A DNA stretch of 63,804 bases, the filler included, from a bacterium (GTDB lineage Bacteria; JBBIVP01), in NCBI GenBank assembly GCA_037439705.1. It is 4 parts of 4 records of this genome, joined end to end, with 100 filler letters (N's around TTAATTAATTAA, not from the genome) between each part and the next. Parts side by side here need not be neighbours in the genome. Positions count along the whole stretch, not along the records: positions 35,074 to 52,418 come from JBBIVP010000022.1; 3 more parts are not named here. One strand, given 5' to 3'. Below, in pieces: positions 9,034 to 52,518 of the stretch (positions within the stretch are counted from its first letter, which is position 1; each line of letters opens with the position of its first letter). The notes beneath the pieces are model-generated. The model was given only the letters and a program-made list of their open reading frames with translations, did no database searches and had not been told where the DNA came from. A program made the position numbers and the translations under genes.

Positions 9034-9035
9034 AC

Positions 9036-17496: not shown

Positions 17497-17596
17497 NNNN
17501 NNNNNNNNNNNNNNNNNNNNNNNNNNNNNNNNNNNNNNNNTTAATTAATTAANNNNNNNNNNNNNNNNNNNNNNNNNNNNNNNNNNNNNNNNNNNN
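17497..17596. other. Artificial contig linker
   Basis: N44-TTAATTAATTAA-N44, stop codons in all six frames. Confidence 0.97.
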
Positions 17597-19574: not shown

Positions 19575-19635
19575 CTACTTCTCAATAGTAAACTTTTTGT
19601 TCATGTCATCCATGTTTTTTCACTTCATAAAATCT

Positions 19636-22332: not shown

Positions 22333-22334
22333 TT

Positions 22335-23543
22335 TTATCCTCCGTTTTCAATACTTCTCAACTCCATCCAGGGTGGGAGAATTTTTGTAAGGATATAAAG
22401 AATAAGGAAAGGAAGGACAAGAAATAGTAAGGCGACCAATAATCCTTCAACTCCCAAAAGTTCCATTTTGTAAACAGTCAAACCCCTGAAGCTTTTTGAA
22501 AAGAGTTGACCCCCTATAACCACATTCCACCTTGTAGCAAAAATACCAATCTGAACCAAAATGGCAACTATGAAATATAGAAGTCTTCTCAACTCATCCG
22601 GTGGGGTGAATATCTTGATTAAAATAAGAACTGTTAAAGGAAAAATTGTCCCTATAAGTATCTGAATCACAACAAGGCTTATAAACAGTCTTGAGGTAAC
22701 AAGCTTTGAAAGGATATGTATTGATTCCTCTGCCTGATAAAGCCTGTGTATAAAGTCAAGCATTTCAAGAGAGAAATCAACTATTATTGAATACAATATG
22801 AAATCAGCAAGCCTGTCCACACACTTCATATCAACTTCTTTCCTGCGAAGAAGAGTAATTAAAATGTAAAGGAAAAGAACAAGTGCTATTCCCGAAACAA
22901 TAGCGGAAAATAGAAAAACTACCGGCATTAAAACACTGCTCCACCACGGATTGGCTTTAACTGACCCGAATATAAAACCTACATATCCGTGCAGTAAAAA
23001 AGCAGAAGGAATACCAATTATGGTTATCACCTTCACTGTTTTTTTATCCAGATTTACTGCAGATGGCGAAACATCTGTGGTAAAAAGAGTAATCGCCCTA
23101 TGAATGAATTTTCTCAATCCACTCTCATTCTGAGCCCACATTATAAGGTCCTTCCTGTAATCAAACCACATCTCAAGAAGTAAAACAACCATAAGATACC
23201 ACAGATAAACTATCCCGTACATCTACATAGGAGTACGAAGGTGGGGTGTGAGGAAAATTTCTATTGAGCGTGCTGGATGACCGAGATGGGCAAGAAGCGG
23301 AAGAGGAGCAACAAGTAAAAATGCTAAAGCAGTAAGCAATGAAAGTCTGTAGGTTGGAGCCACATCCTTAACATTGAAGACCTTGACAAGAGAGGCAAGT
23401 ATAAATGCTCCTGCAACAAGTCCTGTAATGTAGGGATAAACAACTATCAATATACTCCAGTGAAGTTCAATTTCGTTAGGATATATAAATCCTGTAATGT
23501 GCTGAAGTGCTGAAGAAAGTTGTTCTACAAGATGCTCCATCAC
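22335..23543 (-). CDS. NrfD/PsrC-family membrane subunit interrupted by in-frame TAG at 23223-23225
   Basis: ORFs 23223-23543 and 22335-23222 are in one frame; WSILIVVYPYITGLVAG, HLGHP, LHGYVGFIFG, RWNVVIGGQ. Confidence 0.85.
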
Positions 23544-24277
23544 CTTACCTCTCCATCAAGATTGGCATAAAAAACCTTCGGTTCTGTATTCATACCAGGT
23601 TTTAACACATGTATTTCGTTCATCCTCATAAACCTCACAAGGGGACTGCTTCTTTTAGTTAAATCTCCAAAGACCCTCGCATGTGTTGGACACACTTCAA
23701 CACAAGCAGGTTTCAAACCTTTCGTTATTCTGTGGTAGCAGAATGTGCACTTGTCCGCCACCCTTTTTTCAGGATGAAGGTATCTTGCTCCATAGGGACA
23801 TGCCTGAATACAGTATCTGCAGCCAATACAGTAATCAGGATCTACAAGAATTACACCCTCAGGACTCTTAAATGTTGCACCTACAGGACAAACCTGAACA
23901 CAGGGCGGATTATCACATTGATTGCAAAGTTTCGGAACAAAAAAACTTCTTAGAATCTGTTTTTCTCTCTTTTCAACAGAATAAGGACTTTTCGTACTTC
24001 TATCTAAGGTTTCCACTTCTACTTCACCATCTTTATAAATGGTATACCTCTCAACCCATGTTCTGTAAAAGAAAGGATATTTTGGCACATTATTTTCCAG
24101 CTTACATGCCTCAACACATTTTCCACATCCGACACATCTCTTTATGTATATTCCCATCCCATACCGGGGAGAGCGGTCGTTTTCTTTACTCATCCTGGGT
24201 AACGCTAATACCTCCTTTCCACTGAGGAAAAGAACTGCCAAACCAAATGTATCCCTTATAAAGTTCCTGCGATTCAT
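23540..24277 (-). CDS. NrfC-like 4Fe-4S protein (Tat signal)
   Basis: MNRRNF; four Cys groups including FVPKLCNQCDNPPCVQVCP and KCTFC. Confidence 0.92.
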   Translation of the reverse strand: MNRRNFIRDTFGLAVLFLSGKEVLALPRMSKENDRSPRYGMGIYIKRCVGCGKCVEACKLENNVPKYPFFYRTWVERYTIYKDGEVEVETLDRSTKSPYSVEKREKQILRSFFVPKLCNQCDNPPCVQVCPVGATFKSPEGVILVDPDYCIGCRYCIQACPYGARYLHPEKRVADKCTFCYHRITKGLKPACVEVCPTHARVFGDLTKRSSPLVRFMRMNEIHVLKPGMNTEPKVFYANLDGEVR

Positions 24278-24280
24278 CCT

Positions 24281-25033
24281 TTAGCCTCCTTCAGGAGAAT
24301 GTGGATAATGACATTCCCAGCATAGGTATCCTTCAGAATGAGAATCAACCTCTATTTTTGGAATATAATCTGGAGTTTTTGCAGTCTCCGAGTGACACCT
24401 TTCACACACATCAGTGTTTGTAGGTTTTGTCGGACGCTGAGACCTCGGGTCAAATTTATGATGTGAAGGCGTTTTATGACATACCGTGCATTCAAGGGAA
24501 GCATGGGGTGAAATAGATTTCATACTTGAAATAGTCCTGTGACACACCTGACAATCTGTAGGAGGATGCGGTGGAGTTGGATCGTGCGGATTGTGACACT
24601 CCGTGCACTGTTTAGGGGGATTGTGCAGATAAGGGTCAACCTGCGGGAATCCAGTGGGACGAGATACAATATATTCATGACATTTCAAACACTCCTCTCT
24701 CTTTCGGGGTATAATTATCTCTCCTTCTCCTTCTGCATGTTTCAATCCCGGACCATGACAGGTTTCACATGAAAGCAGTTTATGATAAGAGTTTTCTATT
24801 TTTGATACCTCTTCTTCATGACATTCCTCACACTTCTCCCTGCCAGCATAAACAAGAGGCTTATTTTTTTCGTTAACAAGTGCGCTGGTTCTGTAATGCC
24901 CGAGCTCTCCGAAGTCTGATGGAATAAATTGCTCTCTCAAAAAAATCACGGTTAAAAATCCACCTATTATTAAGATTCCGAGCCTTCTGTACTGCTCTGG
25001 TATCTTTTTCCAGATTTTAAGCGGGGTAACCAA
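24281..25033 (-). CDS. Membrane-anchored octaheme cytochrome c
   Basis: N-terminal TM; CEECH, CETCH, CLKCH, CTECH, CQVCH, CTVCH, CERCH, CWECH; AAGGAGG RBS before TTG. Confidence 0.88.
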   Translation of the reverse strand: MVTPLKIWKKIPEQYRRLGILIIGGFLTVIFLREQFIPSDFGELGHYRTSALVNEKNKPLVYAGREKCEECHEEEVSKIENSYHKLLSCETCHGPGLKHAEGEGEIIIPRKREECLKCHEYIVSRPTGFPQVDPYLHNPPKQCTECHNPHDPTPPHPPTDCQVCHRTISSMKSISPHASLECTVCHKTPSHHKFDPRSQRPTKPTNTDVCERCHSETAKTPDYIPKIEVDSHSEGYLCWECHYPHSPEGG

Positions 25034-34476: not shown

Positions 34477-34973
34477 ATGTATAAACCAACATTAAAATTT
34501 CCCTTTCAAATCAAAACAAAGATAATTTATGGACAGGGAAGCATGAAGGAATTGAAGATTGAAATGGATGGGAAAGGAAAAAAAAGGGCTTTGATTGTCA
34601 CCGATGAATTTCTCTACAAAAACACAAATTTCATAACACATGCGGAAGAAATCCTCGGAAATTACTTGGTAGATGTATTTAGCGAAGTTCAGCCCGATTC
34701 TTCCTTTGAAATTGTGGATAAAGGTGCAAAAATTGCTGAAGAGAAAAAAATTGATACGGTGATAAGCATAGGAGGTGGAAGCAGTATTGATACCGCAAAA
34801 GGAATATGTGCTGTACTTTCAACCGGAAAATCCATCAAAGAACTGATGGGTTTTGGAGGAGTGGGAAGTTCAAAAATTTTTCATATCGCTGTTCCAACCA
34901 CTGCAGGAACTGGAAGTGAGGCAACATCAATGGCGGTTATAAAAGATAGAACAAGTGGAAAAAAACTTGTGGT
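34477..34973 (+). CDS. Iron-containing alcohol dehydrogenase, N-terminal part
   Basis: GGGSSIDTAK, PTTAGTGSE; truncated by the gap. Confidence 0.9.
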
Positions 34974-35073
34974 NNNNNNNNNNNNNNNNNNNNNNNNNNN
35001 NNNNNNNNNNNNNNNNNTTAATTAATTAANNNNNNNNNNNNNNNNNNNNNNNNNNNNNNNNNNNNNNNNNNNN
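34974..35073. other. Artificial contig linker
   Basis: N44-TTAATTAATTAA-N44. Confidence 0.97.
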
Positions 35074-35074: not shown

Positions 35075-36283
35075 TACAGAGAGTATGACCTTCCTGAAAT
35101 AGGTGGAACATCAAAAGGAATATACGGGTTTGGCACTTCCTATTTGAGGGAAAGAAGAACAGAAATTTACGACCTGATGAATGTCCCGCCTTTTCTGTTC
35201 TATGTAAAAGATGAAAAAGAGGATGGAGAGGTTGAGGTTCTCGCTCAATCTTTTTATATTTTTGGAGGCATAAGTTATTCTTTCTCAGAGAAATTTGCCA
35301 TATCTCCAAACCTCCTTGTTGGATACCAGAACTCCTCAATTGACGGGGAAGGAATATACGAAAACAAAAAATACCTTAATGATGCAGACGAAATATATTC
35401 AGAGGCTTATACATCAGCATCATCCATAAATTCTTCGAGCCCGATTTTTGGAACAGCAGTAAAGTTTTATTTGAAACCCGGAGAGCATGAGGTCATACTT
35501 GATGTGGGTTATTTGAGATTCCCTCAAAAGATATCGGATGGAAAAGCAGAAGAAAACCTTTCTATAAAAAAAGAAGAAATAATTGAAAGGTCTGAAGAGG
35601 TTAATGGAGAATACTCGGGCGGATGGATGGATTCAAGAAGCAGATTTGTAATAAATTTAAGGGACACTTACAAAGGATGGAAAAGGATAAAAATAGGTTA
35701 TGGAATTGAATATGTGAGGGAAAAAACCACATATCAAAAGGGAAAAATTCAATATTCTTATAGCCTGAGGGAGATATTCAACGATGGAGATGAGGAAGTA
35801 GCAGACCCTGATGATTATGAAAAGACAGCGTCTGCAAAAATGGGGAGAAAAATCATGGATACATTGCTCGTTCAGGAGGTGGGCATTCCAATTGCTGTAA
35901 TAATGGACCTCGGAGGAGGTTTTGAAATCCTTGCAGGAGTGAAGCACATAATAAAAAAAACTGAAATAATGAAGGGTTCGCTTATTTCTGGTGAAGTGCT
36001 TCAGTATTCCCAGAAGACCGTTTATGGAGATGGAAGGATTGAGTATTCAAACGAACTTCCTCCTGAACTTGAAGGAAAATGGCTTGACAGAAATAGCACC
36101 ACATACGAATCCCTTGAACAGGGGCAGAAAACAGAAAGCATAACAAGAATAAGGTTTGGAATATCAATAAACAGGTTTGAAAATCTTCTCATTGAATTCA
36201 TGGTAGATACAGGGACAGGAGATGGAATGCATTCCGCACTGGACCTGACAAAATTTTATCTTTCAGGAATCTTCATCTTCTGA
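35075..36283 (+). CDS. Probable outer-membrane beta-barrel, 5'-truncated
   Basis: Frame open from contig edge (YREYDLPEIGG...), amphipathic strands, C-terminal LSGIFIF. Confidence 0.6.
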   Translation, partial: YREYDLPEIGGTSKGIYGFGTSYLRERRTEIYDLMNVPPFLFYVKDEKEDGEVEVLAQSFYIFGGISYSFSEKFAISPNLLVGYQNSSIDGEGIYENKKYLNDADEIYSEAYTSASSINSSSPIFGTAVKFYLKPGEHEVILDVGYLRFPQKISDGKAEENLSIKKEEIIERSEEVNGEYSGGWMDSRSRFVINLRDTYKGWKRIKIGYGIEYVREKTTYQKGKIQYSYSLREIFNDGDEEVADPDDYEKTASAKMGRKIMDTLLVQEVGIPIAVIMDLGGGFEILAGVKHIIKKTEIMKGSLISGEVLQYSQKTVYGDGRIEYSNELPPELEGKWLDRNSTTYESLEQGQKTESITRIRFGISINRFENLLIEFMVDTGTGDGMHSALDLTKFYLSGIFIF

Positions 36284-37626
36284 TGAGAAAATACATACTC
36301 ATAATTCTTTTATTACTCCTTTCCTGCAGTGAAAGAGAAGAATTAAAGACAAAGCTCCAGGAGTTTTTGCCAGCAGAAGAACCCTCCCTTTTAACAATTC
36401 TTTCCGATCCAGCAGATTCAATAATACCGCTTCCGGGCGGTATTTTTATCATAAAAGTAGAGTTTTCAAAACCAGTTGACCCATCATCCCTTTCAGGGAA
36501 CATTCTCGTCCATCCTGTTATTGGCGACACTCAGGATGGTGAAAACAGAATGGGAGATGGAGTAGTTCTAAAAAACTGGTCGTTGAGCGATGATAAAAAA
36601 AACCTTTTCATTTCTCTATCGTTGCAAGACGGTGAATATATCCTCCATCTCAAAAAAGAGATAAAAAGCATTGACGGAAAAAATCTTGACGGGATATGCG
36701 ATTTTAAGGATGAAACATCTGATGCCTATTCTTCCGGATTTTCCACAGGAGGAGAGGAAACCTTTGTTACAAAGGCATTCTGTAAAGCAAATCCATTTAT
36801 TTCATATCTTGGACCTGTTGGAGGAGGAATGGAATTTAAAGACCACAGCGGATGTTCCGGAAAGGTAAACCTGGGATTTCCCACGCAACTTGATTTTGAG
36901 CTGAGGTTCTCCTTTCCAACAGGAACGACGAGCAATTATTTCCTCTCAAAAGAAGTCGGCAGAAATATAGAAATGATTGACCTCACAACGGACGAAAGAG
37001 TCCCCATTTATTTCTCCCTTGACAACAGAATAACATGGAAGGATGACATTGAAAAATTTGAAATTGAAAATATCACGAATGATTTCCCGGTTTACATAAG
37101 ACCGCAAAACCTATCCCCCCTTCACAGGTTCGCCATAAAGATAAACCGCTTTGAAGATTTGAAGGACAGATATGAGCTCCCTTTTTCCGATGAACACCCT
37201 GACGAGGATATGATTTATGAAGTATGTTTTACCACCGCTGGGATTTCAAGCACACTGAGGGTTAAAGAAATAACAATTGAAAGAAAGGATGGATACATAT
37301 CAGAAATGAAAATAACCTTTCTGACCCCTGACCCTGGAAGCGATAAAATGGACGAAGAAACAATTATTCCTCAAAACTTTTCCATAATGAATTCAAAATT
37401 TGAAAGTATTCCTTTTAAACTTGAACTCCACAGGGAAGTTATATTCATGCAGGAGGTTGATGTGGTTCTTTTGAGAATTCCAGAAGGATATTTAGGAGCA
37501 GATGAACCATTTGGGCTCAAAATAAGTTACAGGGTATCGGATGAAAGAGGAAATACTTTAGACGGAAATGAAGACGGATATATTGAAGAAAACGGCAATG
37601 ATGATTATCTGAGGATTTTTCAATGA
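36283..37626 (+). CDS. Lipoprotein with Ig-like (Big_5/SbsA-like) domains
   Basis: LLLSC lipobox, VEFSKPVDPSS, IKSIDGKNLDG, DGNEDG. Confidence 0.7.
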   Translation: MRKYILIILLLLLSCSEREELKTKLQEFLPAEEPSLLTILSDPADSIIPLPGGIFIIKVEFSKPVDPSSLSGNILVHPVIGDTQDGENRMGDGVVLKNWSLSDDKKNLFISLSLQDGEYILHLKKEIKSIDGKNLDGICDFKDETSDAYSSGFSTGGEETFVTKAFCKANPFISYLGPVGGGMEFKDHSGCSGKVNLGFPTQLDFELRFSFPTGTTSNYFLSKEVGRNIEMIDLTTDERVPIYFSLDNRITWKDDIEKFEIENITNDFPVYIRPQNLSPLHRFAIKINRFEDLKDRYELPFSDEHPDEDMIYEVCFTTAGISSTLRVKEITIERKDGYISEMKITFLTPDPGSDKMDEETIIPQNFSIMNSKFESIPFKLELHREVIFMQEVDVVLLRIPEGYLGADEPFGLKISYRVSDERGNTLDGNEDGYIEENGNDDYLRIFQ

Positions 37627-39317
37627 AAAGGATTTTTGCAATAATTCTTTTATTAACTGCCTGCGAATCCCTTAAAGAGGAGGAGGCTATTTTTCCTCAA
37701 ATTCAGGGAAGAAATGAAGAACCTCCGTATGTGGTGGAATGTGAAACGGAGAGAGGAAATGCGGAAATAGACCCTTATGCACATATATGGAAGATAAAAA
37801 TCAGATTTTCAAAAAGCATGGATAAGGAATCAGTTGAAAAAAATATACTGGTGGGTGAGGCGGACGGGTTAAAGGAGGGGGTAAATAATATCGTAAATGA
37901 GATTATACCCAAAGAAATCTCATGGGACTACGATGGAACTGTCATGTTTCTTACAATTCAACTCTACTGGGGAAAATGGTTCTTTATAAAAATAGGGAAA
38001 GAAGCAAAAGATATTTATGGTAACTTTCTTGATGGAAGGGTATCAAAAGGCTCAAGACCGGATGATGACTTTTCATCAAGCCCGTCCGATTTTTACTCCC
38101 TTCCCTTCAGGGTAGGAGGTGCTTCAACAACGGTTCCATTATTAAAAGAAGGAATAATGACCCCGCTCCCTGGAAGGTTCACATATTCTCCATTCATAGA
38201 AAAGGTTAAAATTTTTCACAGGAAAGAGGTTGATGGTTTCTTCAGAGACAATTCCTACATTTCCCTTGACGGAATGTACGGAAAGGGAATAATACTCTAT
38301 CCGGATGAAGTATCATTCACCATATTTTTTAAGGTTCCATCAAAGGGGAAAATCTCTGCTCCAACCTTTTCTGCAAAAATTCTTGACCTATCAAAAAATA
38401 AAGAGATTCCACTGCTCTTCAGAAATGAGTCAACCGGGGAATGGTTTGAATATCCGGATGAACTATCCGATTTTACAAGCATATCTATAAAATCAGAAAC
38501 TTTAGAACCATCAACCTTTTACATGCTGAAGATAAACACGGATGAAAAACTTTCGGATGAATACGGAATAAAATTCGTGGACCTTCAAGAAGATGAAGAT
38601 AACCTCTACGCATTGTATTTCGCAACAAGTCCTATACCATTTTCTTCACCAGTTCCGCCATCCCTTCTCCTTTTCTCTCTTTCAGAGGGAGTTTACTCAT
38701 TTATAGTGCCCGATGGAGGTTTGTTTCACAGAATAGACCTTGAAAATCTATACCAGAAAATAAAAACCGATAAACTCTTAAGTTATGGAGAGGAATTATT
38801 TCCATCACCGAATGCTCCACATACCCCGACTTTGAGAACTGTTTTCAGAGGAGATGCCATAGAATTCTCCGACCAGATATCGGCAGGAGATGAAAGACTG
38901 GATACAGATGGAGATGGTATATCGGGCGGAAGATTCAGAAAATCAATTTCATCAACATCCATCCCTGTTCTTTTAGACCCGTATGAACCCGATGATACAA
39001 TTTTTCAGGCATATCCTTTAAGTTTAACATCTTCCTGTGAAGAAAATGAAAGACTCCTTCCAGCATGGGATACAGATTTTTTCTCCTTTTCACTTGAAGT
39101 CACATCAACAGTAAGCATTTCAAACCTCAACGGGATTGATATAGCAATAAGGCTCTATGATGAAAATTTGAAGCCTCTTAAAGAAGATATAAAAGGAGAA
39201 GGAGTTTCGGATGAAATTCCACCCGGAAAATATTACATTCAGGTAGTCCCTCAATACCCCCCTCTCTGGAATGAATACAACCCTCCCTTTTACATCCTGA
39301 AGGTCTGTAATCAATAA
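37623..39317 (+). CDS. Lipoprotein with Ig-like domains and C-terminal PPC-like domain
   Basis: LLTAC lipobox, IRFSKSMD, KDIYGNFLDG, DTDGDG, DPYEPDD...DTDFF...PGKYYIQV. Confidence 0.7.
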   Translation: MKRIFAIILLLTACESLKEEEAIFPQIQGRNEEPPYVVECETERGNAEIDPYAHIWKIKIRFSKSMDKESVEKNILVGEADGLKEGVNNIVNEIIPKEISWDYDGTVMFLTIQLYWGKWFFIKIGKEAKDIYGNFLDGRVSKGSRPDDDFSSSPSDFYSLPFRVGGASTTVPLLKEGIMTPLPGRFTYSPFIEKVKIFHRKEVDGFFRDNSYISLDGMYGKGIILYPDEVSFTIFFKVPSKGKISAPTFSAKILDLSKNKEIPLLFRNESTGEWFEYPDELSDFTSISIKSETLEPSTFYMLKINTDEKLSDEYGIKFVDLQEDEDNLYALYFATSPIPFSSPVPPSLLLFSLSEGVYSFIVPDGGLFHRIDLENLYQKIKTDKLLSYGEELFPSPNAPHTPTLRTVFRGDAIEFSDQISAGDERLDTDGDGISGGRFRKSISSTSIPVLLDPYEPDDTIFQAYPLSLTSSCEENERLLPAWDTDFFSFSLEVTSTVSISNLNGIDIAIRLYDENLKPLKEDIKGEGVSDEIPPGKYYIQVVPQYPPLWNEYNPPFYILKVCNQ

Positions 39318-40405
39318 CTGCTACAATACAGCCTTATTGCTGAACAGGCTCCACATCTTAAACATCCTGCCCTGAAATTTTCAGGATTCAATTTAAAAAG
39401 ATGAAGAATTTCTGCTGTTCTTTCGTAAAGCATCTTCATCCTTTCCGGCTCAGGTGGAGTAAATTTTTCATAAAAAGGCGTCCCCGGAATTGGTCTAAAT
39501 GGAACTAAAAAAGGAAATACACCGATAGAAGAAAGCATTTTTATCCCGTTCAGCGTCTTTTTCAAATCCTCTCCAAAACCTATTATTACAAAACTTGAAA
39601 CCTGCCCCCATCCAAACACCTCAACCCCCTTTTCCCAGTTCCTCAAAAAATTTTTCAAACCAATATCACTTTTCCATGGAGAGATTATCTTCAAAACATC
39701 CTCATCAAGGGTTTCTATGTGAATAGCTATTGTATCAACTCCCATATCCTTTATTTCTTCAAAAATTTTAACATCATCTACAGGAGAAAACTGAATGTGA
39801 ACATTGAGACCAGCCTTTCTTGCATAATTCCCAGCACGGGCAAGGCTCAAAACCTCTTTCCTTCTATCTTTCTGTGTTCCTGTGGTTATCGTTATATGCT
39901 TGACCCCATCCAGCATGGAGGCTGTTTTTGCTGTGATGTATATCTCTTCTGGCTTTTTAAAGGGAATGGTCTTATTATCTTTTAAAGATATCCCTATACC
40001 GCAAAACTTACATCCTTCATCTTTTCCGTAGTGAACGCAGGTCTGAAAAATGGTTGTTCCTATACAATCCTTACCGTGAAGAAGGGCTATCTTCCAGAAA
40101 GGCACTCCCTCCTCGGTTTTGAATCTGTAATAATGTGGTTCCCCTCTCATTTTGACCTTTAACCCTGTATCAATTCCATTTTTGAAGATTTTCAAAATCT
40201 CTCCTTCATTTTTCAAAGTAAAAGGAGAACTGGAAACATAGTGTGAATAAAACGGAATGTTAACAGGAATTTCCTCCCCATCTCTTACAATCAGCAGGGT
40301 AATTCCCTCAGATGGTCCTGCTCCACCCTTCCTTCCCGATATTTCCACATCGCTCTTTAACCCGTAGGACTGAAGTTCTACAATGATATCCTTTAGGTCC
40401 ATCAT
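39311..40405 (-). CDS. Radical SAM protein, MSMEG_0568-like family
   Basis: RKGGAGPS, KIALLHGKD, QTCx8CKFC, GQVSS, VPFRP, C-terminal GCLRCGAC. Confidence 0.8.
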   Translation of the reverse strand: MMDLKDIIVELQSYGLKSDVEISGRKGGAGPSEGITLLIVRDGEEIPVNIPFYSHYVSSSPFTLKNEGEILKIFKNGIDTGLKVKMRGEPHYYRFKTEEGVPFWKIALLHGKDCIGTTIFQTCVHYGKDEGCKFCGIGISLKDNKTIPFKKPEEIYITAKTASMLDGVKHITITTGTQKDRRKEVLSLARAGNYARKAGLNVHIQFSPVDDVKIFEEIKDMGVDTIAIHIETLDEDVLKIISPWKSDIGLKNFLRNWEKGVEVFGWGQVSSFVIIGFGEDLKKTLNGIKMLSSIGVFPFLVPFRPIPGTPFYEKFTPPEPERMKMLYERTAEILHLFKLNPENFRAGCLRCGACSAIRLYCSSY

Positions 40406-41628
40406 TTTACAGACCTTATTAACAGTTCTGTAACATCCCTTATCTTCAAATAAGAGTTCTTCCTCTGGATTGAAAGCATTAAACTCTGATAACAGAAGGG
40501 ACAGGCTGTAACGAGTTCATCGGCACCTGTGCTTTCCGCATCATCTATCCTCATATCGCTCATAGCGTTATTTATTGAAGGAAATCCCGCCTTCACTCCT
40601 CCACCTGCTCCACAACATCTTGAAAACTCCCTTGACCTCTTCATCTCAATAAGTTCAATTCCAGGAATCCTTTTCAATATCTCCCTTGGTTCATCGTAAA
40701 GCCTGTTGTGCCTTCCTAAATGGCACGGGTCATGGTATGTAATTTTTAATGGAACTTCTTTAACCGGAATGAGTTTTTTTTCCTCTATAAGCTCGAGCAG
40801 AAACTGAACGAGATGAACTGTTCTGAAAGGAAGTTTCTGGAGTTCCCTGTAATCCTGATTCATCGTCTTGAAACAGCCTGAACACGAAAAAACCACTGTG
40901 TGAACCTGAAGTTCGGTAAAAAGCTTTATGTTTGCGAGCGCCTGTTCTTCAAATGTTTTATAATCTCCTATTCTTAAAGGGGTGCTTCCGCAGCATTTTT
41001 CTCTGGGGCCAAGGATTCCAAACTCAATCCCGGCTATGTTCATAAGTTCAACGAAATTTATTGCAACCTCTGTAATGTTCTGGTCGTATGAGGCTGTGCA
41101 TCCAACATAATAAAGAACCTTTGCCCTGTTTTTTGTAATATCCTGAACCTGTTTTGAAATTCTTCCCTCTTTAAAAGCCCTATCAGCCCACTTTCCTCTC
41201 ATTGCCCTCGGCTGCATCCACGGGTTGTCATAATTTTTTATGCTCTGAGAAATGGTTTTCTGCTGGGGAAGTGGTCCATATCCAGAAGAAACCATACCTG
41301 CTCTTATCCTCTCCCATAATTTCGGTGTATCAATCCCTGCAGGACACACCTCCCTGCACTGAGCACAGACTGAACACTCATAAAGGGCGGAGAGAAAATC
41401 CATTATTTCTTTCTCCCTCACCCTCGGTCCGAAAAGTAAAGCCAATAAACCCCTTTCTTTTTTCAGAATTGAATTCAAGGTTTTCAGTTTTTCCCTCGGC
41501 GTGAGAACCTTTCTTCTGTCAACATCGTAAACAGGACAGTAAAGATAGCATTCCCTGCAACTTGCACAGGCAGAAATATCCAGAAGGTCAAAAATAGAAA
41601 GGTTCTCTGAAAGATTAATTTCCGGCAT
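40402..41628 (-). CDS. HdrD/GlpC-like Fe-S protein (2x4Fe-4S plus two CCG domains)
   Basis: CASCRECYLYCP, CSVCAQCREVCP, EKCCG, YHDPCHLGR, CCGAGGG, TACPFC. Confidence 0.9.
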   Translation of the reverse strand: MPEINLSENLSIFDLLDISACASCRECYLYCPVYDVDRRKVLTPREKLKTLNSILKKERGLLALLFGPRVREKEIMDFLSALYECSVCAQCREVCPAGIDTPKLWERIRAGMVSSGYGPLPQQKTISQSIKNYDNPWMQPRAMRGKWADRAFKEGRISKQVQDITKNRAKVLYYVGCTASYDQNITEVAINFVELMNIAGIEFGILGPREKCCGSTPLRIGDYKTFEEQALANIKLFTELQVHTVVFSCSGCFKTMNQDYRELQKLPFRTVHLVQFLLELIEEKKLIPVKEVPLKITYHDPCHLGRHNRLYDEPREILKRIPGIELIEMKRSREFSRCCGAGGGVKAGFPSINNAMSDMRIDDAESTGADELVTACPFCYQSLMLSIQRKNSYLKIRDVTELLIRSVK

Positions 41629-42310
41629 TCTCCCTTCCGAAAACCTCTTTAAGTGGAAGCATGAGAATGTGAATCATTTTTGTCCATGGTATTGAAGCAA
41701 CAAAAATGAGAACGAGCATCACATGGATGTATAGAAGGGGAACAAAAGAAAGATTAACCCCCATGTTATCAAAAAGCCAAGTTCCAAATTTTCCGAGAAA
41801 AAATTCTCCCTTCCTCGCTGTTTTTTCAATGCTCTGAATTTTGGAAATTTGAAGGAGAAATCCGCTGAGCCATATTCCAAAAAGCATTGAGAGGGAATAA
41901 AAATCCTCAAATTCTCCCCTTGTATCCTTCCTTGAAAAAAATCTCCTCAAAAAGGCAATTGAAATCCCTGAAAAAAGGGCTAACGAAAACAGATCGTGAA
42001 GGACAAAAACTGTCTTCTCATTTAGTCCCGAAGATTTTATAACCCAGGGAAACCAGTAGAAGAAAAGGAACCAGAGAAAAGAAAGGAAAATGAGAAAATG
42101 GGCTGTCCACCGCGAAAGTCCGAGTTTCATTATTCCTGTCTGGAATGGAACCCTGAAAAAAATCCCTCTTAAAAATTTTTTAATTCCTCCCTCTCTTTCC
42201 TCAACGAGCCCGTCCATCCATACCAGAATGTGGGAGGAGATGCCGACGAGAAGGATAAAATAGACTCCAAGTTTAAGATATTTTAGATAGCTTAAAAGCT
42301 CCATCTTCAC
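41615..42310 (-). CDS. NarI/HdrE-like membrane cytochrome b subunit
   Basis: About 5 TM; WTAH, LYIH, IPWTKMIH His pattern. Confidence 0.72.
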   Translation of the reverse strand: MKMELLSYLKYLKLGVYFILLVGISSHILVWMDGLVEEREGGIKKFLRGIFFRVPFQTGIMKLGLSRWTAHFLIFLSFLWFLFFYWFPWVIKSSGLNEKTVFVLHDLFSLALFSGISIAFLRRFFSRKDTRGEFEDFYSLSMLFGIWLSGFLLQISKIQSIEKTARKGEFFLGKFGTWLFDNMGVNLSFVPLLYIHVMLVLIFVASIPWTKMIHILMLPLKEVFGRENAGN

Positions 42311-43544
42311 CCTTTCTGAAATATGCCCTTAAAAAAATTTTTAAAGCAGTTTTCAAAGAAGAAATGAGAAGGTCCATCCTTTCCTCGGATGTGGACGGGG
42401 TGAGTTGAAAAAGAATTTCCTTTGAAATCCTGAGGCTCTCTTCAAGAATTTTTGTTTCCTCGTCCTCCACGAAAATCTTCTTTTTAAATATCCGCTTGTG
42501 AATTGCTCTGGCGAATACGAGGAGATGCTCGGGCATGTAATACTTTTCACCTATCTTCCAGAAAGCCTTCATATCACCTATGGAGAGTGCTTTCATGAAT
42601 ATATCCGAAACGAGCCTCCTTACGGAGTCCGAAAGTTTCACCGGGAAACCTCTGAAAAGTAGTTCTGGATTTGAATTCCTTTTTCTCATCTTTCCAGTAT
42701 TGTAGGCTATTATTTTGAGAAGAACGGAATTTGCCGATTTGAAGGAAGGATGTTCAAGGTGCGGACCGAAAAGATAGAATGCTCCTTCCCCGATTTTCCA
42801 CTCAACAATTGCCGGTTTTCCCGGAAGAATCCTTTCTGCTATATCCCTGTCAAAGAGAAAAATTGTCCTGTCAGTAAATGAGGAAAACCTTGCGAGAACC
42901 CTCCCCTTTTTTTCTGGCTCTTTAAAAACAGGACCTCCAAAAATTGGCGCTGAGATTTTTTCTTTTAAAAAGATGGGCGGAAAGGGCGATGTCTCTATTA
43001 TCACCTCATCTCGAACCGGATGAATGATAAAACAACAGGCATATCTGTTGAAGGCTTTCTCCTGCATGGCTCTTACAGGTGGAAGTTCGCTTTCAAAATT
43101 TGCAATCTCAACAGGAACAAAGTTAAAAAAATTTAAAGGAGGTTTTGATGTATATAATACAAGATAGGCTCCTGCACAGGAACCTATGTATATTCCCCCT
43201 TCCATCACAAATTTTTTTATTGCGGATGCACCATCGCTCCCAAGACCTTCGGCAAGGGCAAATGTGTCTCCACCCGCCACGAACAGAAAATCAAAATCCG
43301 AAATAAGATGGCTTTCATCTTCACTGAATGGAACAATGAACTCAAAACCGTATCTCTCAAATGTATCCACTGCCCAGAGCCAGGAATGAGAAGCCCCCTT
43401 TCCTGTATAAATGCCTATAAGAGGAATTCTTAATTCAAGTGGAGATTGAAGGGTGTCCGGGGATTCAGAAAAAGTTCCTGATATTTCATCCATAAATGCG
43501 ACTCCTCCCTCCTTTATTCTCATCATAGCAGAAAAAACATCCAT
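42273..43544 (-). CDS. BPL-N / class I glutamine amidotransferase-like protein
   Basis: AGGDTF, GGIYIGSCAGAY, FGGP, GPHLE; alternative RBS-led start at 43493. Confidence 0.75.
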   Translation of the reverse strand: MDVFSAMMRIKEGGVAFMDEISGTFSESPDTLQSPLELRIPLIGIYTGKGASHSWLWAVDTFERYGFEFIVPFSEDESHLISDFDFLFVAGGDTFALAEGLGSDGASAIKKFVMEGGIYIGSCAGAYLVLYTSKPPLNFFNFVPVEIANFESELPPVRAMQEKAFNRYACCFIIHPVRDEVIIETSPFPPIFLKEKISAPIFGGPVFKEPEKKGRVLARFSSFTDRTIFLFDRDIAERILPGKPAIVEWKIGEGAFYLFGPHLEHPSFKSANSVLLKIIAYNTGKMRKRNSNPELLFRGFPVKLSDSVRRLVSDIFMKALSIGDMKAFWKIGEKYYMPEHLLVFARAIHKRIFKKKIFVEDEETKILEESLRISKEILFQLTPSTSEERMDLLISSLKTALKIFLRAYFRKGEDGAFKLSKIS

Positions 43545-43567
43545 AATTTTAATTATATCAATACCTT

Positions 43568-44575
43568 TCAGAAGTTTAAATAAGACTTATCGGTTTGCAG
43601 GGCAACTCTGAAGAAAAGAGGGCATATTCCATAGTTCAAAAGTTCCTTAACTACTGCTCCATCCACTCCTGCAAACTCCATAAACGATGATGGAATCTCC
43701 TCCTCTTTCAAACCAGATGGATGTACACCCTTTCTCAACATGTCCATTGTTGATTTCGGATTGCCTTCCTTCAAATAATTCGGGTCAAGGGCTATAAATC
43801 CCGGCTCTTTCTTTTCAGATTCCTTTAAAATTTTTGGGTCATCCTCAATCATAAAAAATGGATAACAGTTCAAACCACAATTAAAACACGCACTTCTCCT
43901 GTGAACAAATTTTTTCAATTCCTCACCGATACTCAACCCAATCTCCTTTCCCCTTGGAAGTTTCAACATCTTCTTGAATGACTCTTCAGATATGGAAATG
44001 GAACCCATTCCCCTCACGCACACTGCTTTCAGATTCTTTTTCCTGAATTCCTCACCCGCACCGATTGAATCAAATCCTCCCCAGTATCCCTGAGAAAGAG
44101 CGGATGGAGACCCGGTGCCTGTTACAAGAGCCTGGACCTTTTCATCTCCGTGGTCTTCCTTCAGAAAATCCAGTGTTTCCCATACATCTTTATTGCTCAA
44201 ATTTTCAGCAGAAAGGATATCGCATATCCCGTCCCTTATCCAGAGACGAACAGGAGAGGAAGAACTGTTTTTTATAACAAGAAAGTCAAATCCTGTGAGT
44301 TTGAATTCAACGGGGAAAAACCAGTTGAGAGGAAGGCAAAAACTTTTCCCGTTCCTTTTCCAGAGAACAAATCCCATACATCCTGAGGGGAAGAAACTCG
44401 CTGTCCAGGTTCCTGTTCCTATTACAATAGGCTCAGCATCAGCAAACCTCTTTAAAAGTTCAACCACGATTTCATAACCGCCTTTGAGAGAGGAAATAAG
44501 GTCTTCAATCTCAAAATCCTCCACCTCTCCTTTGCCGAGGTCAACCATTAAAGCTTTTCCATTCCAGAATTCCAT
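43568..44575 (-). CDS. Shortened aldehyde:ferredoxin oxidoreductase-like protein
   Basis: AOR N-domain (GKALMVDL, ELK-like FKLTGFD, KNLKAVCVRG), CFNCGLNC and GICP; only 335 aa. Confidence 0.72.
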   Translation of the reverse strand: MEFWNGKALMVDLGKGEVEDFEIEDLISSLKGGYEIVVELLKRFADAEPIVIGTGTWTASFFPSGCMGFVLWKRNGKSFCLPLNWFFPVEFKLTGFDFLVIKNSSSSPVRLWIRDGICDILSAENLSNKDVWETLDFLKEDHGDEKVQALVTGTGSPSALSQGYWGGFDSIGAGEEFRKKNLKAVCVRGMGSISISEESFKKMLKLPRGKEIGLSIGEELKKFVHRRSACFNCGLNCYPFFMIEDDPKILKESEKKEPGFIALDPNYLKEGNPKSTMDMLRKGVHPSGLKEEEIPSSFMEFAGVDGAVVKELLNYGICPLFFRVALQTDKSYLNF

Positions 44576-44576
44576 T

Positions 44577-44918
44577 TCATCCCTCCTCTACCTGAAGGCA
44601 TCCTGTAGGACATAAAACCACACAGAAACGGAACTCCTCATCCCTGCACAGATCACAGGGTTCCCTCATCACAATTGGCTTGCTTGATGCTCCACCACCT
44701 GCTGATTCGCCTGGCTTCAAAGTTTCAGGACCCTCGGGTCTTGCAAGATAAATGTCCTTTTCTCTTTTCAGAATCACCCCGAAATAATCCTTTTTTTCAA
44801 CCCTGTGAAGCATTATTGATGAACTCATTGCATTGAACTCCCTGTCCCTGTGATATCCACAGGCATACTCGCATATTCCGCAGGCATTACATTTGATTGT
44901 ATCTATCTTTATCTTCAT
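44577..44918 (-). CDS. Ferredoxin-like 4Fe-4S protein
   Basis: CNACGICEYAC and CDLC...CVVLCPTGC. Confidence 0.85.
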   Translation of the reverse strand: MKIKIDTIKCNACGICEYACGYHRDREFNAMSSSIMLHRVEKKDYFGVILKREKDIYLARPEGPETLKPGESAGGGASSKPIVMREPCDLCRDEEFRFCVVLCPTGCLQVEEG

Positions 44919-46142
44919 CTATACCTCCATTGACTCAATCAATAGCTCCTCCACATCCATAACCTTTATCCTTCCTCCCATAGAGTCTGCAGCAGGAGAA
45001 AGGTTCAGTTCACAGAAAGGACATACGCTTGCAAGAATCTCAGCACCTGTAGCCAGTGCTTCCTCTATCCTCTTTCTTGCAACCCATTGCGCATAATCCG
45101 GATATGCAGTCCTAACACCTCCACCTGCTCCACAACAGAACGACCACTCCCTGATCCTCTCCATTTCAACAAATTCAACTCCTGGAATTGCCTTCAGAAC
45201 CTCCCTTGGAGGGTCGTATATTCCTGCATATCTTCCAACATGACAGGGGTCATGATAGGTAACCTTTTTATTCAACTCCTTTTTAAATGGAAACCCCTTA
45301 TCTTTAAGCCTTTCGTAAATAAACTCAATGATGTGAACTACCCTCGGTTTCAAATCACCTTCGTATGAATGAAGAAATGTGGAATAACATCCAGCACAGG
45401 CAGTAACAATCGTTTCAACCCCCAAGGAATTCAAAACCTCAAGCGTTTTTCTTTTCTGTTTTTCAAACGCTTTACTATCACCAATTCTTATTATTGTGGA
45501 GCCACAGCATGCCTCATTCTTTCCGAGTATTCCAAAATCAATTCCCATGATGGAAAGAAGTTTTATGGTAGCCTCAGAAACTCTCATATATGCAGGGTCA
45601 AAACTTCCAGTGCATCCCACAAAATAAAGGACCTGAGCCTTCTCCTTTGGAAGTTCCTTTACAGAAATTCCAAGCCTTCTTACCCATCTATCCCTTTCCG
45701 TTCTTGGCTTCATCCATGGATTATCATAATTTTCAATGCTTTTAATAAGGGGCTGGTGCTCTTTGGGAGGACCGTATCCATTTCTTACAAGAAATTCCCT
45801 GAGAGCCATAATAGCACTTACAGGTTCAAGCCCTTTTGTAGAGTTGCATATAGCGAAACAATTCCCGCAGAGGGTGCATGTAAAAGCAATATGAATCAAC
45901 TTCTCAGTAATCGGAATTTCAGGAGGATCCTGAAGCAAAGCCCTTATTATCTCATGCCTTCCTGATGCATAATACGCTTCAAATCCGAACCTTGTTCCCG
46001 ACGGACAGTTATCAGAAAAACGATGACTCTTCAATTTCTCGGGATTTGTCATTCCACACATCCTGCATCTGACACACTTCATTGCCATTGTTCTGAATGC
46101 GGAAAGTGGTTTTACCTCAACTATCTTTGCACCCTCAGCCAT
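44919..46142 (-). CDS. HdrD/GlpC-like Fe-S protein (CCG domains)
   Basis: CVRCRMC...CP, CTLCGNC..IC, EACCG, YHDPCHVGR, CCGAGGG, CPFC. Confidence 0.9.
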   Translation of the reverse strand: MAEGAKIVEVKPLSAFRTMAMKCVRCRMCGMTNPEKLKSHRFSDNCPSGTRFGFEAYYASGRHEIIRALLQDPPEIPITEKLIHIAFTCTLCGNCFAICNSTKGLEPVSAIMALREFLVRNGYGPPKEHQPLIKSIENYDNPWMKPRTERDRWVRRLGISVKELPKEKAQVLYFVGCTGSFDPAYMRVSEATIKLLSIMGIDFGILGKNEACCGSTIIRIGDSKAFEKQKRKTLEVLNSLGVETIVTACAGCYSTFLHSYEGDLKPRVVHIIEFIYERLKDKGFPFKKELNKKVTYHDPCHVGRYAGIYDPPREVLKAIPGVEFVEMERIREWSFCCGAGGGVRTAYPDYAQWVARKRIEEALATGAEILASVCPFCELNLSPAADSMGGRIKVMDVEELLIESMEV

Positions 46143-46164
46143 ATTGTATCTCCTTTTTGTAATA

Positions 46165-46203
46165 TACCTCTATTAGAGTATCTCTTTTAGAGGTAATTGT
46201 CAA
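46165..46203 (-). promoter_or_regulatory. Sigma70 promoter overlapped by a 31-bp imperfect palindrome
   Basis: Minus strand TTGACA-17-TACTCT; TACCTCTA...TAGAGGTA arms at 46165-46195. Confidence 0.6.
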
Positions 46204-46223
46204 GCGATTTTTTTATTGAACCT

Positions 46224-47816
46224 TTAAAGTCTTACCTGAACAACAGATATTATATTTGGCAATTTGCCGAGCTCCTCAAGAACATCTTTGGAAGCTGGAG
46301 TATCTATGTGGACAAGGGCTATCGCCTGTCCACCCGGAGCCATCCTTCCTATGTGCATGTGGGCAATGTTTATCCCGTTTTTTCCAAGGGTTGAGCCAAT
46401 ATTACCTATCACGCCCGGTCTATCCCAGTTTCTCAGAATTATTATTGTTCCTTCGGGAACCGCTTCAAGGTGAAAATCATCAATTCTCACTATTCTCGGG
46501 TGTCTCTTCCCAAAAACAGCACCCGCTACAGTTCCCTCTTTTGAATCAAGTTTAACCTTTATTGTGACCAAAGAGGCATAATCGCTGCAAACCTCAGTTT
46601 TTCTTTCAAAAATGTTTATACCCCTTTCTTTTGCTATGAATGTGGAGTTTATCAGATTCACATTCTCACCCACAAAACGAATAAGGAATCCCTTCAAAAA
46701 GGACTTTGTGAGGTAATCAGTAGAAAGCCTTGCCACTTCTCCCTCGTATGTTATCTCAATTGTATGAATTGGTCCAGGAAATATCTGGGAAACCAAAAGG
46801 CCAAGTTTTTCGGTAAGTTCCATATAAGGAGAAAGTATATAATAAACCTCTTCCGAAAGAGAAGGAAGGTTGAACGCATTTCGCACAATTCCCCTTACAA
46901 AATAATCCACTACCTGATTGGCTATATCTACAGAAACATTCCTCTGTGCCTCAACAGTTGAAGCGCCGAGGTGGGGGGTGGCAACAACATTTTCAAGTTT
47001 TGCAAGTTCCCACTTTACTGGTGGTTCTTATTCCCAGACATCAATTGCTGCACCCGCAATTCTTTTCTGAACCAGAGCCTCGTAAAGGTCATCCTCATTT
47101 ACAATTCCACCCCTTGCACAATGAAGGAGCATGGCAGATGGTTTCATTTTTTCAATGGCAGATTTATTTATTAGATTCCTCGTCTCCTCATTAAGTGGAA
47201 CATGGATTGAAATGAAATCCGAAGTCCTCAAAAGTTCATCAAGGGAAACCATCTTCACCCCCATCTTCTTCGCCCTTTCCTCAGGAATGTATGGGTCGTA
47301 GGCTATTAGGTTCATTTTCAGCCCAATAGCCCTCTCAGCAACAACTGAACCTATGTTACCGAGCCCGATTATTCCAAGGGTTTTGTTAAAGAGTTCAACC
47401 CCCTCCAACTTTTTCTTCTCCCATTTCTCCTCCTTCATCAACCTGTCAGCTAAAGGGATTTTTCTTGCAAGAGCAAAAAGCATTGCTAGGGTATGTTCAG
47501 CAGTGGTTATTGTATTTCCAAGTGGAGTGTTCATAACGATAATTCCCTTTTTGGTAGCATATTCAACATCCACATTGTCAAGCCCTATCCCTGCCCTTCC
47601 TATGAGCTTTAACCTCTTTCCCCTATCAATTACATCCTTTGTGACCTTTGTTGCGCTTCTCACAATTATCGCATCGTATTCTCCTATGAGCTCAAGAAGT
47701 TCCTCTTTTGTAGTTCCTTTTCTCACATCAATTGAGATAAAATCCTTATAGTTCTCAAATATCTTTACTCCCTCGGGGGCGAGACCATCTGTTGCTATAA
47801 CTCTAACCTTTTCCAT
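46224..47816 (-). CDS. serA: D-3-phosphoglycerate dehydrogenase interrupted by in-frame TAA at 47028-47030
   Basis: VRSATK, RAGIGLDN, GLGNIG, ARGG, DVWE*EPP...TPHLGAST.EAQ, then ASB and ACT domains (DRPGVIG, INIA); 531 codons in one frame. Confidence 0.92.
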
Positions 47817-52418: not shown

Positions 52419-52518
52419 NNNNNNNNNNNNNNNNNNNNNNNNNNNNNNNNNNNNNNNNNNNNTTAATTAATTAANNNNNNNNNNNNNNNNNNNNNNNNNN
52501 NNNNNNNNNNNNNNNNNN
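52419..52518. other. Artificial contig linker
   Basis: N44-TTAATTAATTAA-N44. Confidence 0.97.

Follow-up and report, generated by a model that had tools for sequence, protein, structure and literature searches.

A seven-gene operon linking Hdr-type iron-sulfur proteins to an MSMEG_0568-type radical SAM protein: candidate minimal core of an anaerobic, nitrilase-free counterpart of Nit1C

Results

Seven co-oriented genes behind a conserved upstream block

We analysed a 63,804-nucleotide (nt) stretch of DNA (the window) from the bacterial assembly GCA_037439705.1, and within it an operon of seven genes, g1 to g7, that combines heterodisulfide reductase (Hdr)-type iron-sulfur (Fe-S) proteins with a radical SAM protein of the MSMEG_0568/NitD type. 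The window consists of several contigs joined by N linkers (17497-17596, 34974-35073 and 52419-52518), so genes on either side of a linker need not be neighbours; the operon lies on the contig at 35074-52418 (17,345 nt). Because the window is composite, absence from it means absence from about 64 kb of one bin and not from a contiguous neighbourhood.

Seven minus-strand open reading frames (ORFs) fill positions 39311-46142 exactly. The first, g1 (44919-46142, 407 amino acids (aa)), encodes a soluble HdrD-like Fe-S protein of the GlcF-like branch and is followed by a 2x[4Fe-4S] ferredoxin (g2, 44577-44918, 113 aa) and a truncated AOR homologue (g3, 43568-44575, 335 aa). Next come a protein of GATase-1 fold, nominally BPL_N, with a Cys-His-Glu triad (g4, 42273-43544, 423 aa), a putative membrane cytochrome b of the NarI/HdrE/DsrM type (g5, 41615-42310, 231 aa) and its partner, a second HdrD-like Fe-S protein (g6, 40402-41628, 408 aa). 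The radical SAM gene g7 (39311-40405, 364 aa) is the last of the unit. Spacing is tight throughout: g1 and g2 abut, 1 nt separates g2 from g3 and 23 nt separate g3 from g4, while g4/g5, g5/g6 and g6/g7 overlap by 38, 14 and 4 nt, respectively.

The region 5' of g1 is 81 nt long. It contains a promoter/operator-like block of 41 nt (46164-46204, minus strand) with TTGACA at 46198-46203 and nested inverted repeats, and a Shine-Dalgarno sequence, AGGAG (46150-46154, minus strand), precedes g1. The block is the same in the window and in three related metagenome contigs (L002-L004, see below) except at one A/T position, and the intergenic DNA flanking it cannot be aligned. A consensus promoter scan did not list the block before g1, because its -10 region is poor. 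Promoter-like hexamers were also seen at 43552-43580, before g4; in the relatives a possible earlier start of g4 overlaps that stretch. A preliminary description of this DNA had proposed seven co-oriented, abutting or overlapping genes behind one promoter/operator; the ORF listing and the conserved block bear this out, and Pfam and NCBIfam returned the same families (CCG, AFOR_N, BPL_N and TIGR04043) that it had named.

The operon is conserved in close relatives

An alignment specific for the clade of g7 retrieved four metagenome contigs, L001-L004 (69-74% identity). In L002-L004 the whole set of seven genes is present in unchanged order, together with the upstream aminotransferase and serA genes; L001 starts inside g4 and carries g4-g7. 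Amino acid identities to these relatives were 90% for g1, 86-88% for g2, 75-77% for g3, 75-78% for g4, 66-70% for g5, 87-90% for g6 and 69-74% for g7. All seven genes are under purifying selection: the ratio of nonsynonymous to synonymous substitution rates (dN/dS) against L003 and L004 was 0.03-0.16 throughout, and 0.03-0.05 for g1, with dS above 1.2 and one g2 comparison giving no dS. Past g7, L002-L004 continue with rimP-nusA-infB-rbfA-truB-pnp, whereas the window has unrelated convergent genes. This break of synteny directly after g7 indicates that the unit ends there.

Two larger sets of loci were also collected. One comprised 160 radical-SAM-anchored loci, 80 of them genome loci. The other was anchored independently on an alignment of g4 homologues, which matched 240 loci of species-representative genomes. 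Of these we retained the best 80 (L161-L240, the BPL_N-anchored loci), and genes were counted within 10 kb on either side of the anchor (n = 80, of which 39 loci are at least 19 kb long). The two sets together make a pool of 240 loci.

Two HdrD-like proteins keep the full Hdr-type cysteine set

Pfam assigned two CCG domains and Fer4 to both g1 (133.5 bits, with Fer4_8) and g6 (123.8 bits). The best NCBIfam match of each was TfrB, at about 220 bits (218.8 for g1) and under the cut-off of 385. Equivalog scores were all far under their cut-offs, among them DsrK (56.9 against 400 bits) and, for g6, TmcB (101.5 against 735) and HmcF (78.1 against 750). By inspection, each protein has two cubane motifs followed by two full five-cysteine CCG motifs. 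There are 18 cysteines in g1, including C177/C212/C213/C249/C252 and C300/C336/C337/C374/C377, and no hydrophobic segment; in g6 the CCG cysteines are invariant in 26/26 homologues.

The top solved relative of g6 is EtfD of M. smegmatis (9ojn_A; 209 bits by profile, 156 bits by single sequence), with HdrB chains next at 30-58 bits. The clusters of EtfD are reported to be made non-catalytic by Thr539 and His583 (PMC13083937). Where EtfD has C-T, g6 has CC, and where EtfD has C-P-H-C, g6 has C-S-G-C; g1 carries the same C-x-G-C. All ten Hdr-type CCG cysteines are kept in g1 and g6 and the Thr and His substitutions of EtfD are missing, which leaves both proteins compatible with disulfide chemistry.

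A tree of CCG proteins was built from 67 rows: all 9 of the window clade, 22 of the 41 found next to a GlcD-like gene, 27 of the 58 found after a BPL_N-like gene and all 9 others. In this tree g6 fell into a clade with the NarI-associated HdrD-like proteins that follow the BPL_N-like gene (support of 97 in the Shimodaira-Hasegawa-like approximate likelihood ratio test, SH-aLRT). The other protein, g1, grouped with CCG proteins that adjoin GlcD-type FAD-linked oxidases (SH-aLRT 90, long branches), and its nearest relatives, in L040 and L218 (Desulfosarcina cetonica), adjoin FAD_binding_4 genes. No GlcD-like flavoprotein gene was detected in the window by tblastn (E <= 1e-6). A grouping of the CCG proteins with subunits of flavoprotein dehydrogenases, an outcome that would speak against the system proposed in the preliminary description, was thus indicated for g1, on a GlcF-like branch and with no flavoprotein in the window, and not for g6.

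The ferredoxin g2 gave weak, sub-threshold Fer4 matches in Pfam. Its motifs, C10xxC13xxC16xxxC20 and C88xxC91x7C99xxxC103P, are separated by an insert of about 65 residues. Homologues of g2 directly precede the AOR-like gene in 65 of the 80 BPL_N-anchored loci.

An AOR homologue reduced to its first domain

The third protein, g3, matched AFOR_N at 66.9 bits (cut-off 29.8), and Pfam found no AFOR_C in it at E <= 0.01. Profile searches aligned it with AOR, FOR, BamB and WOR5 chains over domain 1 (1aor, 4z3w, 6x1o; E 1e-38 to 1e-26). Its structural model is mediocre (mean predicted local distance difference test score, pLDDT, 67.3) and poor in the C-terminal third; Foldseek matches at E <= 1e-11 were AOR-family chains only, including BamB and WOR5. 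It consists of AOR domain 1 and a short C-terminal remnant that aligns with full-length AOR. In g3, C230-x2-C233-x3-C237 (also C318) aligns with the CxxCxxxC of the full-length AOR of L040, a protein of 611 aa with AFOR_C at 402 bits, against 335 aa for g3. Only the window clade keeps the CxxCxxxC; of the 21 remaining homologues aligned, which are of Thermodesulfobacteriota type, none has more than its first cysteine. Further clusters of AOR-like proteins of about 320-335 aa were seen in the Atlas. Since g3 has 335 aa, compared with about 605-650 aa, and no AFOR_C, a tungstopterin active site is unlikely.

A predicted hydrolase and a putative membrane cytochrome b

Domain searches placed g4 only loosely: BPL_N matched at 41.3 bits over just 42 residues (87-128) and Peptidase_S51 at 26.9 bits (Pfam), and sequence searches of the PDB gave weak S51 peptidase matches only. 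The model is better defined (pLDDT 89.7) and combines a GATase-1 fold with a C-terminal helical domain; C123 sits at the strand-to-helix turn that ends strand 118-123. Foldseek returned glutamine amidotransferase subunits and Pdx2 (probability 1.00), ThuA-like proteins and the GH42 middle domain, with E of about 1e-6. The motifs GSC123AG and P-H262-L-E264, which hold the triad C123/H262/E264, are invariant in 26/26 sequences, so the Cys-His-Glu triad noted in the preliminary description is real; a second invariant cysteine is C170. On the strength of its model and triad, g4 is a predicted Cys-His-Glu hydrolase of glutamine-amidotransferase fold. It belongs to a small family, with 131 representatives out of 1.84 billion at E <= 1e-30, and the related Atlas clusters are labelled BPL_N and come mostly from Thermodesulfobacteriota. 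No fused form of g4 was found among proteins of 801-2285 aa, which is weak evidence.

The membrane protein g5 matched Nitrate_red_gam at 27.8 bits (cut-off 22.9). It has hydrophobic segments and no cysteine; H71, H196 and H214 are invariant in 8/8 sequences. The NarI-like domain directly precedes the HdrD-like gene, as g5 precedes g6, in 65 of the 80 BPL_N-anchored loci.

A radical SAM protein on the anaerobe side of its family

The score of g7 against TIGR04043 (NCBIfam), 312.2 bits, passes the cut-off of 303.7 marginally; Thermodesulfobacteriota members (L017, L084) score about 350 and a cyanobacterial one (L124) 588.4. The variant Cx8Cx2C motif and the C-terminal CxxCxxC that had been reported for g7 are both present (C123-x8-C132-x2-C135 and C348-x2-C351-x2-C354) and invariant in 11/11 members of 42-100% identity, as is C114; as a family pattern they are read from this alignment and not from a curated definition. 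The C-terminal CxxCxxC is likely to hold an auxiliary cluster, judging from these motifs.

The radical SAM tree contained 92 of 185 rows: all 5 of the window clade, 29 with BPL_N context, 6 with CCG context, and random draws of 22 of the 81 with nitrilase context and 30 of the 64 with no context. It splits into a nitrilase half, cyanobacterial and actinobacterial, and an anaerobe half, each supported at SH-aLRT 88. Within the anaerobe half, the window clade (SH-aLRT 100, on a long stem of 0.8) forms an unresolved group with the clade of L084/L086 type.

The seven families recur in a larger cluster of Thermodesulfobacteriota

Nearly all BPL_N-anchored loci belong to Thermodesulfobacteriota or to metagenome-assembled genomes (MAGs) labelled 'delta', and they include Desulfosarcina cetonica JCM 12296. 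Among the 80 loci we counted HdrD-like genes in 67, AOR-like in 66, ferredoxin in 65 and a NarI-like domain in 65, followed by multihaem cytochrome c (63), cytochrome b561 (59), an SsuA-type binding protein (42), radical SAM (29), GNAT (24) and AIR-synthase-like (14). In the 39 loci of at least 19 kb, HdrD-like genes were present in 37, AOR-like genes in 35 and the radical SAM gene in 25; in several other loci the radical SAM gene probably lies outside the fetched flank. Gene order is nearly invariant: ferredoxin, AOR-like, BPL_N-like, membrane module, HdrD-like, ABC importer, radical SAM, GNAT, AIR-synthase-like.

The same association was seen from the radical SAM side. In L011, L013, L017, L025, L040, L084 and L086, BPL_N-like, HdrD-like, AOR-like, ferredoxin or NarI-like genes adjoin the MSMEG_0568-type radical SAM gene (tblastn). 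Annotation of L017 and L084 gave BPL_N-like, membrane module, HdrD-like, SsuA-family ABC importer, radical SAM, GNAT (TIGR04045) and AIR-synthase-like genes (NCBIfam); the AIR-synthase-like protein of these two loci scores near TIGR04049 and 'methanogenesis marker 2'. An FMN-reductase/flavodoxin-like gene stands just 5' of the radical SAM gene in 13 of the 80 BPL_N-anchored loci.

The membrane module is more elaborate in these relatives. Their NarI-like domain is mostly the C-terminal half of a protein of 484-523 aa with an N-terminal multihaem cytochrome c (for example L179, 12890-14344), and in the Thermodesulfobacteriota clusters a second multihaem cytochrome c and a cytochrome b561 precede this fusion. 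The relatives also have a divergent operon with a GntR/FCD regulator, an aldehyde dehydrogenase, a GlcD-like FAD oxidase and a GlcF-like CCG protein. Of the larger cluster, the importer, cytochromes c, GlcD-like gene, aldehyde dehydrogenase and regulator were not found in the window, and tblastn (E <= 1e-6) detected no GNAT (TIGR04045) or AIR-synthase-like (TIGR04049) gene in the window or in L001-L004.

These data confirm that the seven families co-occur in many other genomes, as seen in L002-L004 and among the 80 BPL_N-anchored loci, and that, as the preliminary description had stated, no nitrilase, GNAT or AIR-synthase-like gene lies beside the operon; at the same threshold none was found anywhere in the window. 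They do not support its view of a system distinct from the MSMEG_0568 operon: Thermodesulfobacteriota combine the same genes with radical SAM, GNAT and AIR-synthase-like genes in one cluster. Because all seven families occur within that cluster, the window operon is a reduced form of it and not a stand-alone novelty.

Some loci depart from the common arrangement. In L218 (Desulfosarcina cetonica JCM 12296), 5085-9899 holds genes for a MoxR-type AAA protein, a VWA protein, an FGE-sulfatase-domain protein and two histone-deacetylase-family amidohydrolases between the pair of g1-like and FAD_binding_4 genes and the BPL_N-like gene; the two amidohydrolases are further C-N hydrolases near GNAT. In the metagenome locus L040 (3743-6061 and 11542-15782), a full-length AOR and a polyferredoxin replace the truncated AOR and the BPL_N-like gene, and an FAD oxidoreductase, a PaaK-like AMP-forming ligase and two DUF2148 ferredoxin-domain proteins are encoded between a radical SAM-GNAT fusion and the AIR-synthase-like gene. 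Sixty-four of 189 radical-SAM-positive loci (L006-L007, L019, L030-L053 and others, mostly metagenomic) have no nitrilase, BPL_N-like or CCG gene in the fetched DNA. GNAT occurs in 22 of these 64 and an AIR-synthase-like gene in 29; they may represent a third cluster architecture, or short contigs.

The predicted hydrolase and the Nit1C nitrilase share no locus

The original description of Nit1C lists a conserved cluster of a hypothetical protein, nitrilase, radical SAM, GNAT, AIR-synthase-like protein, small protein and flavin oxidoreductase (PMC1199592). In Pseudomonas pseudoalcaligenes the genes are named NitA-NitH, and the cluster is described as required for cyanide assimilation (PMC8567248). 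The cyanobacterial locus L124 has the canonical Nit1C set and was the source of our nitrilase and MSMEG_0572 queries. With tblastn, these found nitrilase in 66 and MSMEG_0572 in 65 of the 80 radical-SAM-anchored genome loci, and neither nitrilase (TIGR04048) nor NitB/MSMEG_0572 in any of the 80 BPL_N-anchored loci, in L001-L004 (0/4) or in the window. Over all 240 pooled loci, 81 have nitrilase, 89 have a BPL_N-like gene and none has both.

Genomic context and host

Upstream of the operon lies serA (46224-47816, minus strand), a 531-codon frame broken by one TAA at 47028-47030. L003 and L004 have AAG (Lys) there and intact genes, and on the strength of this single TAA against AAG we rejected stop-codon recoding; the TAA is a nonsense mutation or a sequencing error. 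At the other end, three plus-strand genes (35144-39317; 379, 447 and 564 aa) converge on g7. Pfam and NCBIfam gave them nothing beyond a sub-threshold PPC domain, and none of the fetched loci contains a homologue.

The sigma-54 activator, FecR/DUF3106 and GlmM genes of the window mark the host as a bacterium. The few metagenome relatives of its GlmM are 57-86% identical to it, and the closest with a name, from Thermodesulfatator, Thermosulfurimonas and 'Deltaproteobacteria' MAGs, only 47-52%. Single-protein scans of species-representative genomes with g7 or GlmM retrieved no relative; at the level that such scans reach, these genomes appear not to include the lineage. The host lineage, uncultured and deep-branching, stands loosely near Thermodesulfobacteriota. 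A membrane redox chain based on quinone would fit the NrfD-type, UbiB/ABC1 and Nuo/Mrp-type genes that lie elsewhere in the window. On another contig, a co-oriented minus-strand run at 17541-25033 includes an NrfD-family membrane protein (19636-20877) and is probably another quinone-interacting respiratory complex. The N linkers show a regular 44-12-44 pattern, further N runs lie at 20716-20725 and 62623-62632, and an iron-dependent alcohol dehydrogenase gene (34477-35025) is cut by a linker.

Discussion

The operon shares parts with several described systems and coincides with none of them. With Nit1C (NitB-NitH; MSMEG_0565-0572/sll0783-0787; Podar et al. 2005) it has the TIGR04043 radical SAM protein in common, and in the operon's relatives GNAT and AIR-synthase-like genes follow it. 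It differs in that the window and the 80 BPL_N-anchored loci lack nitrilase and NitB, the window also GNAT and AIR-synthase-like genes, and in carrying, in their place, five Fe-S or haem proteins and a predicted hydrolase of GATase fold. As a pair of genes, g5 and g6 resemble HdrDE of methanogens and DsrMK of sulfate reducers, with the same pattern of two cubane and two CCG cysteine motifs and a NarI-family partner with conserved histidines. Here, however, the host is bacterial, no CoM/CoB or DsrC context was seen, and only three histidines of g5 are invariant; NarI has four such histidines. EtfD of Mycobacterium and EMO of Syntrophus follow the same logic of a membrane haem-b domain, cubane and non-cubane clusters, and EtfD is the best solved homologue of g6. 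It is one fused polypeptide of 1042 residues, in contrast to the separate genes g5 and g6, and its Thr and His ligands are not found in g6.

The soluble arm has its own parallels. Class II benzoyl-CoA reductase (Bam) contains an AOR homologue, a polyferredoxin and a CCG protein, and this combination, seen in BamB/BamC/BamD and comparable to WOR5 and AorAB, matches g3, g2 and g1. The difference lies in g3, whose 335 aa without detectable AFOR_C contrast with about 605-650 aa in BamB, WOR5 and AOR. Most Thermodesulfobacteriota relatives, finally, have consecutive genes for a multihaem cytochrome c, a cytochrome b561, a cytochrome c-NarI fusion and an HdrD-like protein, as in Tmc and Hmc of sulfate reducers, whereas the window has a plain NarI-like gene only and no cytochrome c genes.

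We tentatively propose that the seven genes encode one membrane-attached Fe-S system, which would be the minimal core of an anaerobic, nitrilase-free counterpart of Nit1C/MSMEG_0568. In such a system g5, as a haem-b protein, and g6 would form a quinone-linked module of the HdrDE/DsrMK/EtfD kind. A soluble Fe-S wire would be made of g1, g2 and g3, with a composition like that of BamBCD and with g3 keeping the [4Fe-4S] cysteines of AOR after loss of the pterin domains. The radical SAM protein g7 and g4 would act in turn on a small nitrogen-containing substrate, and g4 could take the place that nitrilase has in aerobic Nit1C, by C-N hydrolysis with release of ammonia. Together g1-g3 and g5-g6 would couple the redox step to the menaquinone pool, at the point where aerobes use the O2-dependent flavoprotein NitH. 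Electron flow from substrate to quinone, in a catabolic, scavenging role, seems somewhat more likely than the reverse, because the extended clusters hold an importer, a GntR/FCD regulator, an aldehyde dehydrogenase, a GlcD-like protein and, in L040, a full AOR, and because EtfD and EMO run in that direction.

Several observations weigh against this proposal. The compact operon has no obvious dehydrogenase that would feed the wire, GlcD-like and aldehyde dehydrogenase genes not being found in the window; g3 itself is unlikely to oxidise aldehydes, its pterin domains being gone. Modules of the Tmc/Hmc/DsrMK type in sulfate reducers are usually read as moving electrons into the cytoplasm. The complete Hdr-type cysteine set of g1 and g6 would favour reductive or disulfide chemistry. 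The AOR-like and ferredoxin genes are missing from about 13 of the 65 loci with a NarI-like domain, so that g1-g3 may be an add-on and not part of the core. Nitrilase loci come from Cyanobacteriota and Actinomycetota and BPL_N loci mostly from Thermodesulfobacteriota; this mutual exclusivity is confounded with taxonomy, and replacement of nitrilase by g4 is therefore suggested and not proven. Backbone support is modest, and branches are long, in both the radical SAM and the CCG trees. We keep the proposal tentative because of the full cysteine sets, the Tmc/Hmc-like modules of the relatives and the want of an evident dehydrogenase in the compact operon.

The cysteine sets bear directly on an alternative close to that of the preliminary description, in which g7 and g4 would make or process a thiol cofactor or carrier and its disulfide or persulfide would be reduced at g6, by quinol through g5, and at g1, by ferredoxin electrons through g2 and g3. 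Both CCG proteins keep their ten cysteines without the inactivating Thr and His reported for EtfD (PMC13083937). Their best NCBIfam match, under the cut-off, is TfrB, a thiol-oxidising enzyme; g7, with its C-terminal CxxCxxC, is distantly related to biotin synthase and to sulfur-inserting enzymes of the LipS2 type, and C170 gives g4 a second invariant cysteine. Most relatives moreover have a cytochrome c/cytochrome b module like Tmc/Hmc, a type that in sulfate reducers is linked with cytoplasmic disulfide reduction. Yet no DsrC, TusA, DsrE or lipoyl-type gene stands among the annotated genes of the window contig, L003, L017, L040, L084, L179 and L218, a survey short of a systematic screen, and g1 groups with GlcF-like partners of flavoprotein dehydrogenases. 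The EMO preprint lists HdrDE, TfrB, BamD, GlcF and GlpC as further carriers of the non-cubane domain and states that the non-cubane clusters of EMO carry electrons from ETF to methylmenaquinone; in both solved enzymes, EtfD and the EMO of S. aciditrophicus, these clusters serve electron transfer only. Nothing found points to a thiol cofactor or carrier; the ten-cysteine sets of g1 and g6 are compatible with one, and we regard a thiol cycle as unlikely.

Electrons could also run towards g7, from quinol through g5 and g6 to ferredoxin, g3 and g1 and on to its radical SAM cluster. The proton-motive force might drive this flow, and g4 would be the only other catalytic partner. A dedicated ferredoxin within the operon and the FMN-reductase/flavodoxin-like gene just before the radical SAM gene in 13/80 loci would suit such a supply of reductant, and EMO, according to its preprint, shows that modules of the NarI/HdrD type can link electron transfer with the proton-motive force. 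On the other side, general low-potential ferredoxins are usual in anaerobes of this kind. Four dedicated Fe-S proteins, and multihaem cytochromes in the relatives, seem excessive for one electron per turnover, and aerobic Nit1C clusters (PMC1199592) have no such module. We consider this route quite unlikely. In a two-unit reading of the operon, g1-g3 would be the remnant of a GlcDF/AOR-type dehydrogenase with its flavoprotein or catalytic subunit elsewhere, and g4-g7 a separate unit co-transcribed by history. In L084, L086, L175, L190, L213 and L218, BPL_N-like, NarI, HdrD and radical SAM genes indeed occur with neither an AOR-like nor a ferredoxin gene, the g1-like gene of the relatives is mostly on the opposite strand beside a GlcD-like gene, and the g3/g4 gap, taken as the operon's only intergenic gap, holds the promoter-like hexamers. 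Against this stand the adjacency, in order, of ferredoxin, AOR-like and BPL_N-like genes in most loci (AOR-like in 66/80), the retention of exactly these genes, and no others, by the compact operon, and the single conserved upstream block before g1, which make two independent units distinctly improbable.

A search of the full-text literature, a scope that leaves subscription journals and supplements outside, returned only papers on aerobic Nit1C or on unrelated subjects and no description of the anaerobic, nitrilase-free architecture. It is a doubtful extension of our proposal that the seven genes are the irreducible core of an undescribed anaerobic system that at least some two hundred Thermodesulfobacteriota species possess, in which a NitD-type radical SAM protein and a novel Cys-His-Glu hydrolase would be directly coupled to respiratory quinones or periplasmic cytochromes through Hdr-type non-cubane proteins and an AOR-derived subunit. 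If true, this would be a respiration-linked route to cleave or make an unusual C-N (or C-S) bond.

Nit1C/MSMEG_0568, known since 2005, responds to nitrogen starvation or cyanide, and its radical SAM, GNAT and AIR-synthase-like proteins still have no assigned chemistry. The Thermodesulfobacteriota cluster offers a second, anaerobic architecture, and the seven-gene minimum narrows the partners that the radical SAM protein needs. It also provides a new context for CCG Fe-S proteins, for which functions other than heterodisulfide reduction are just beginning to be worked out. If the extension holds, it would reveal the role of the long-unexplained radical SAM/GNAT/AIR-synthase triad of Nit1C.

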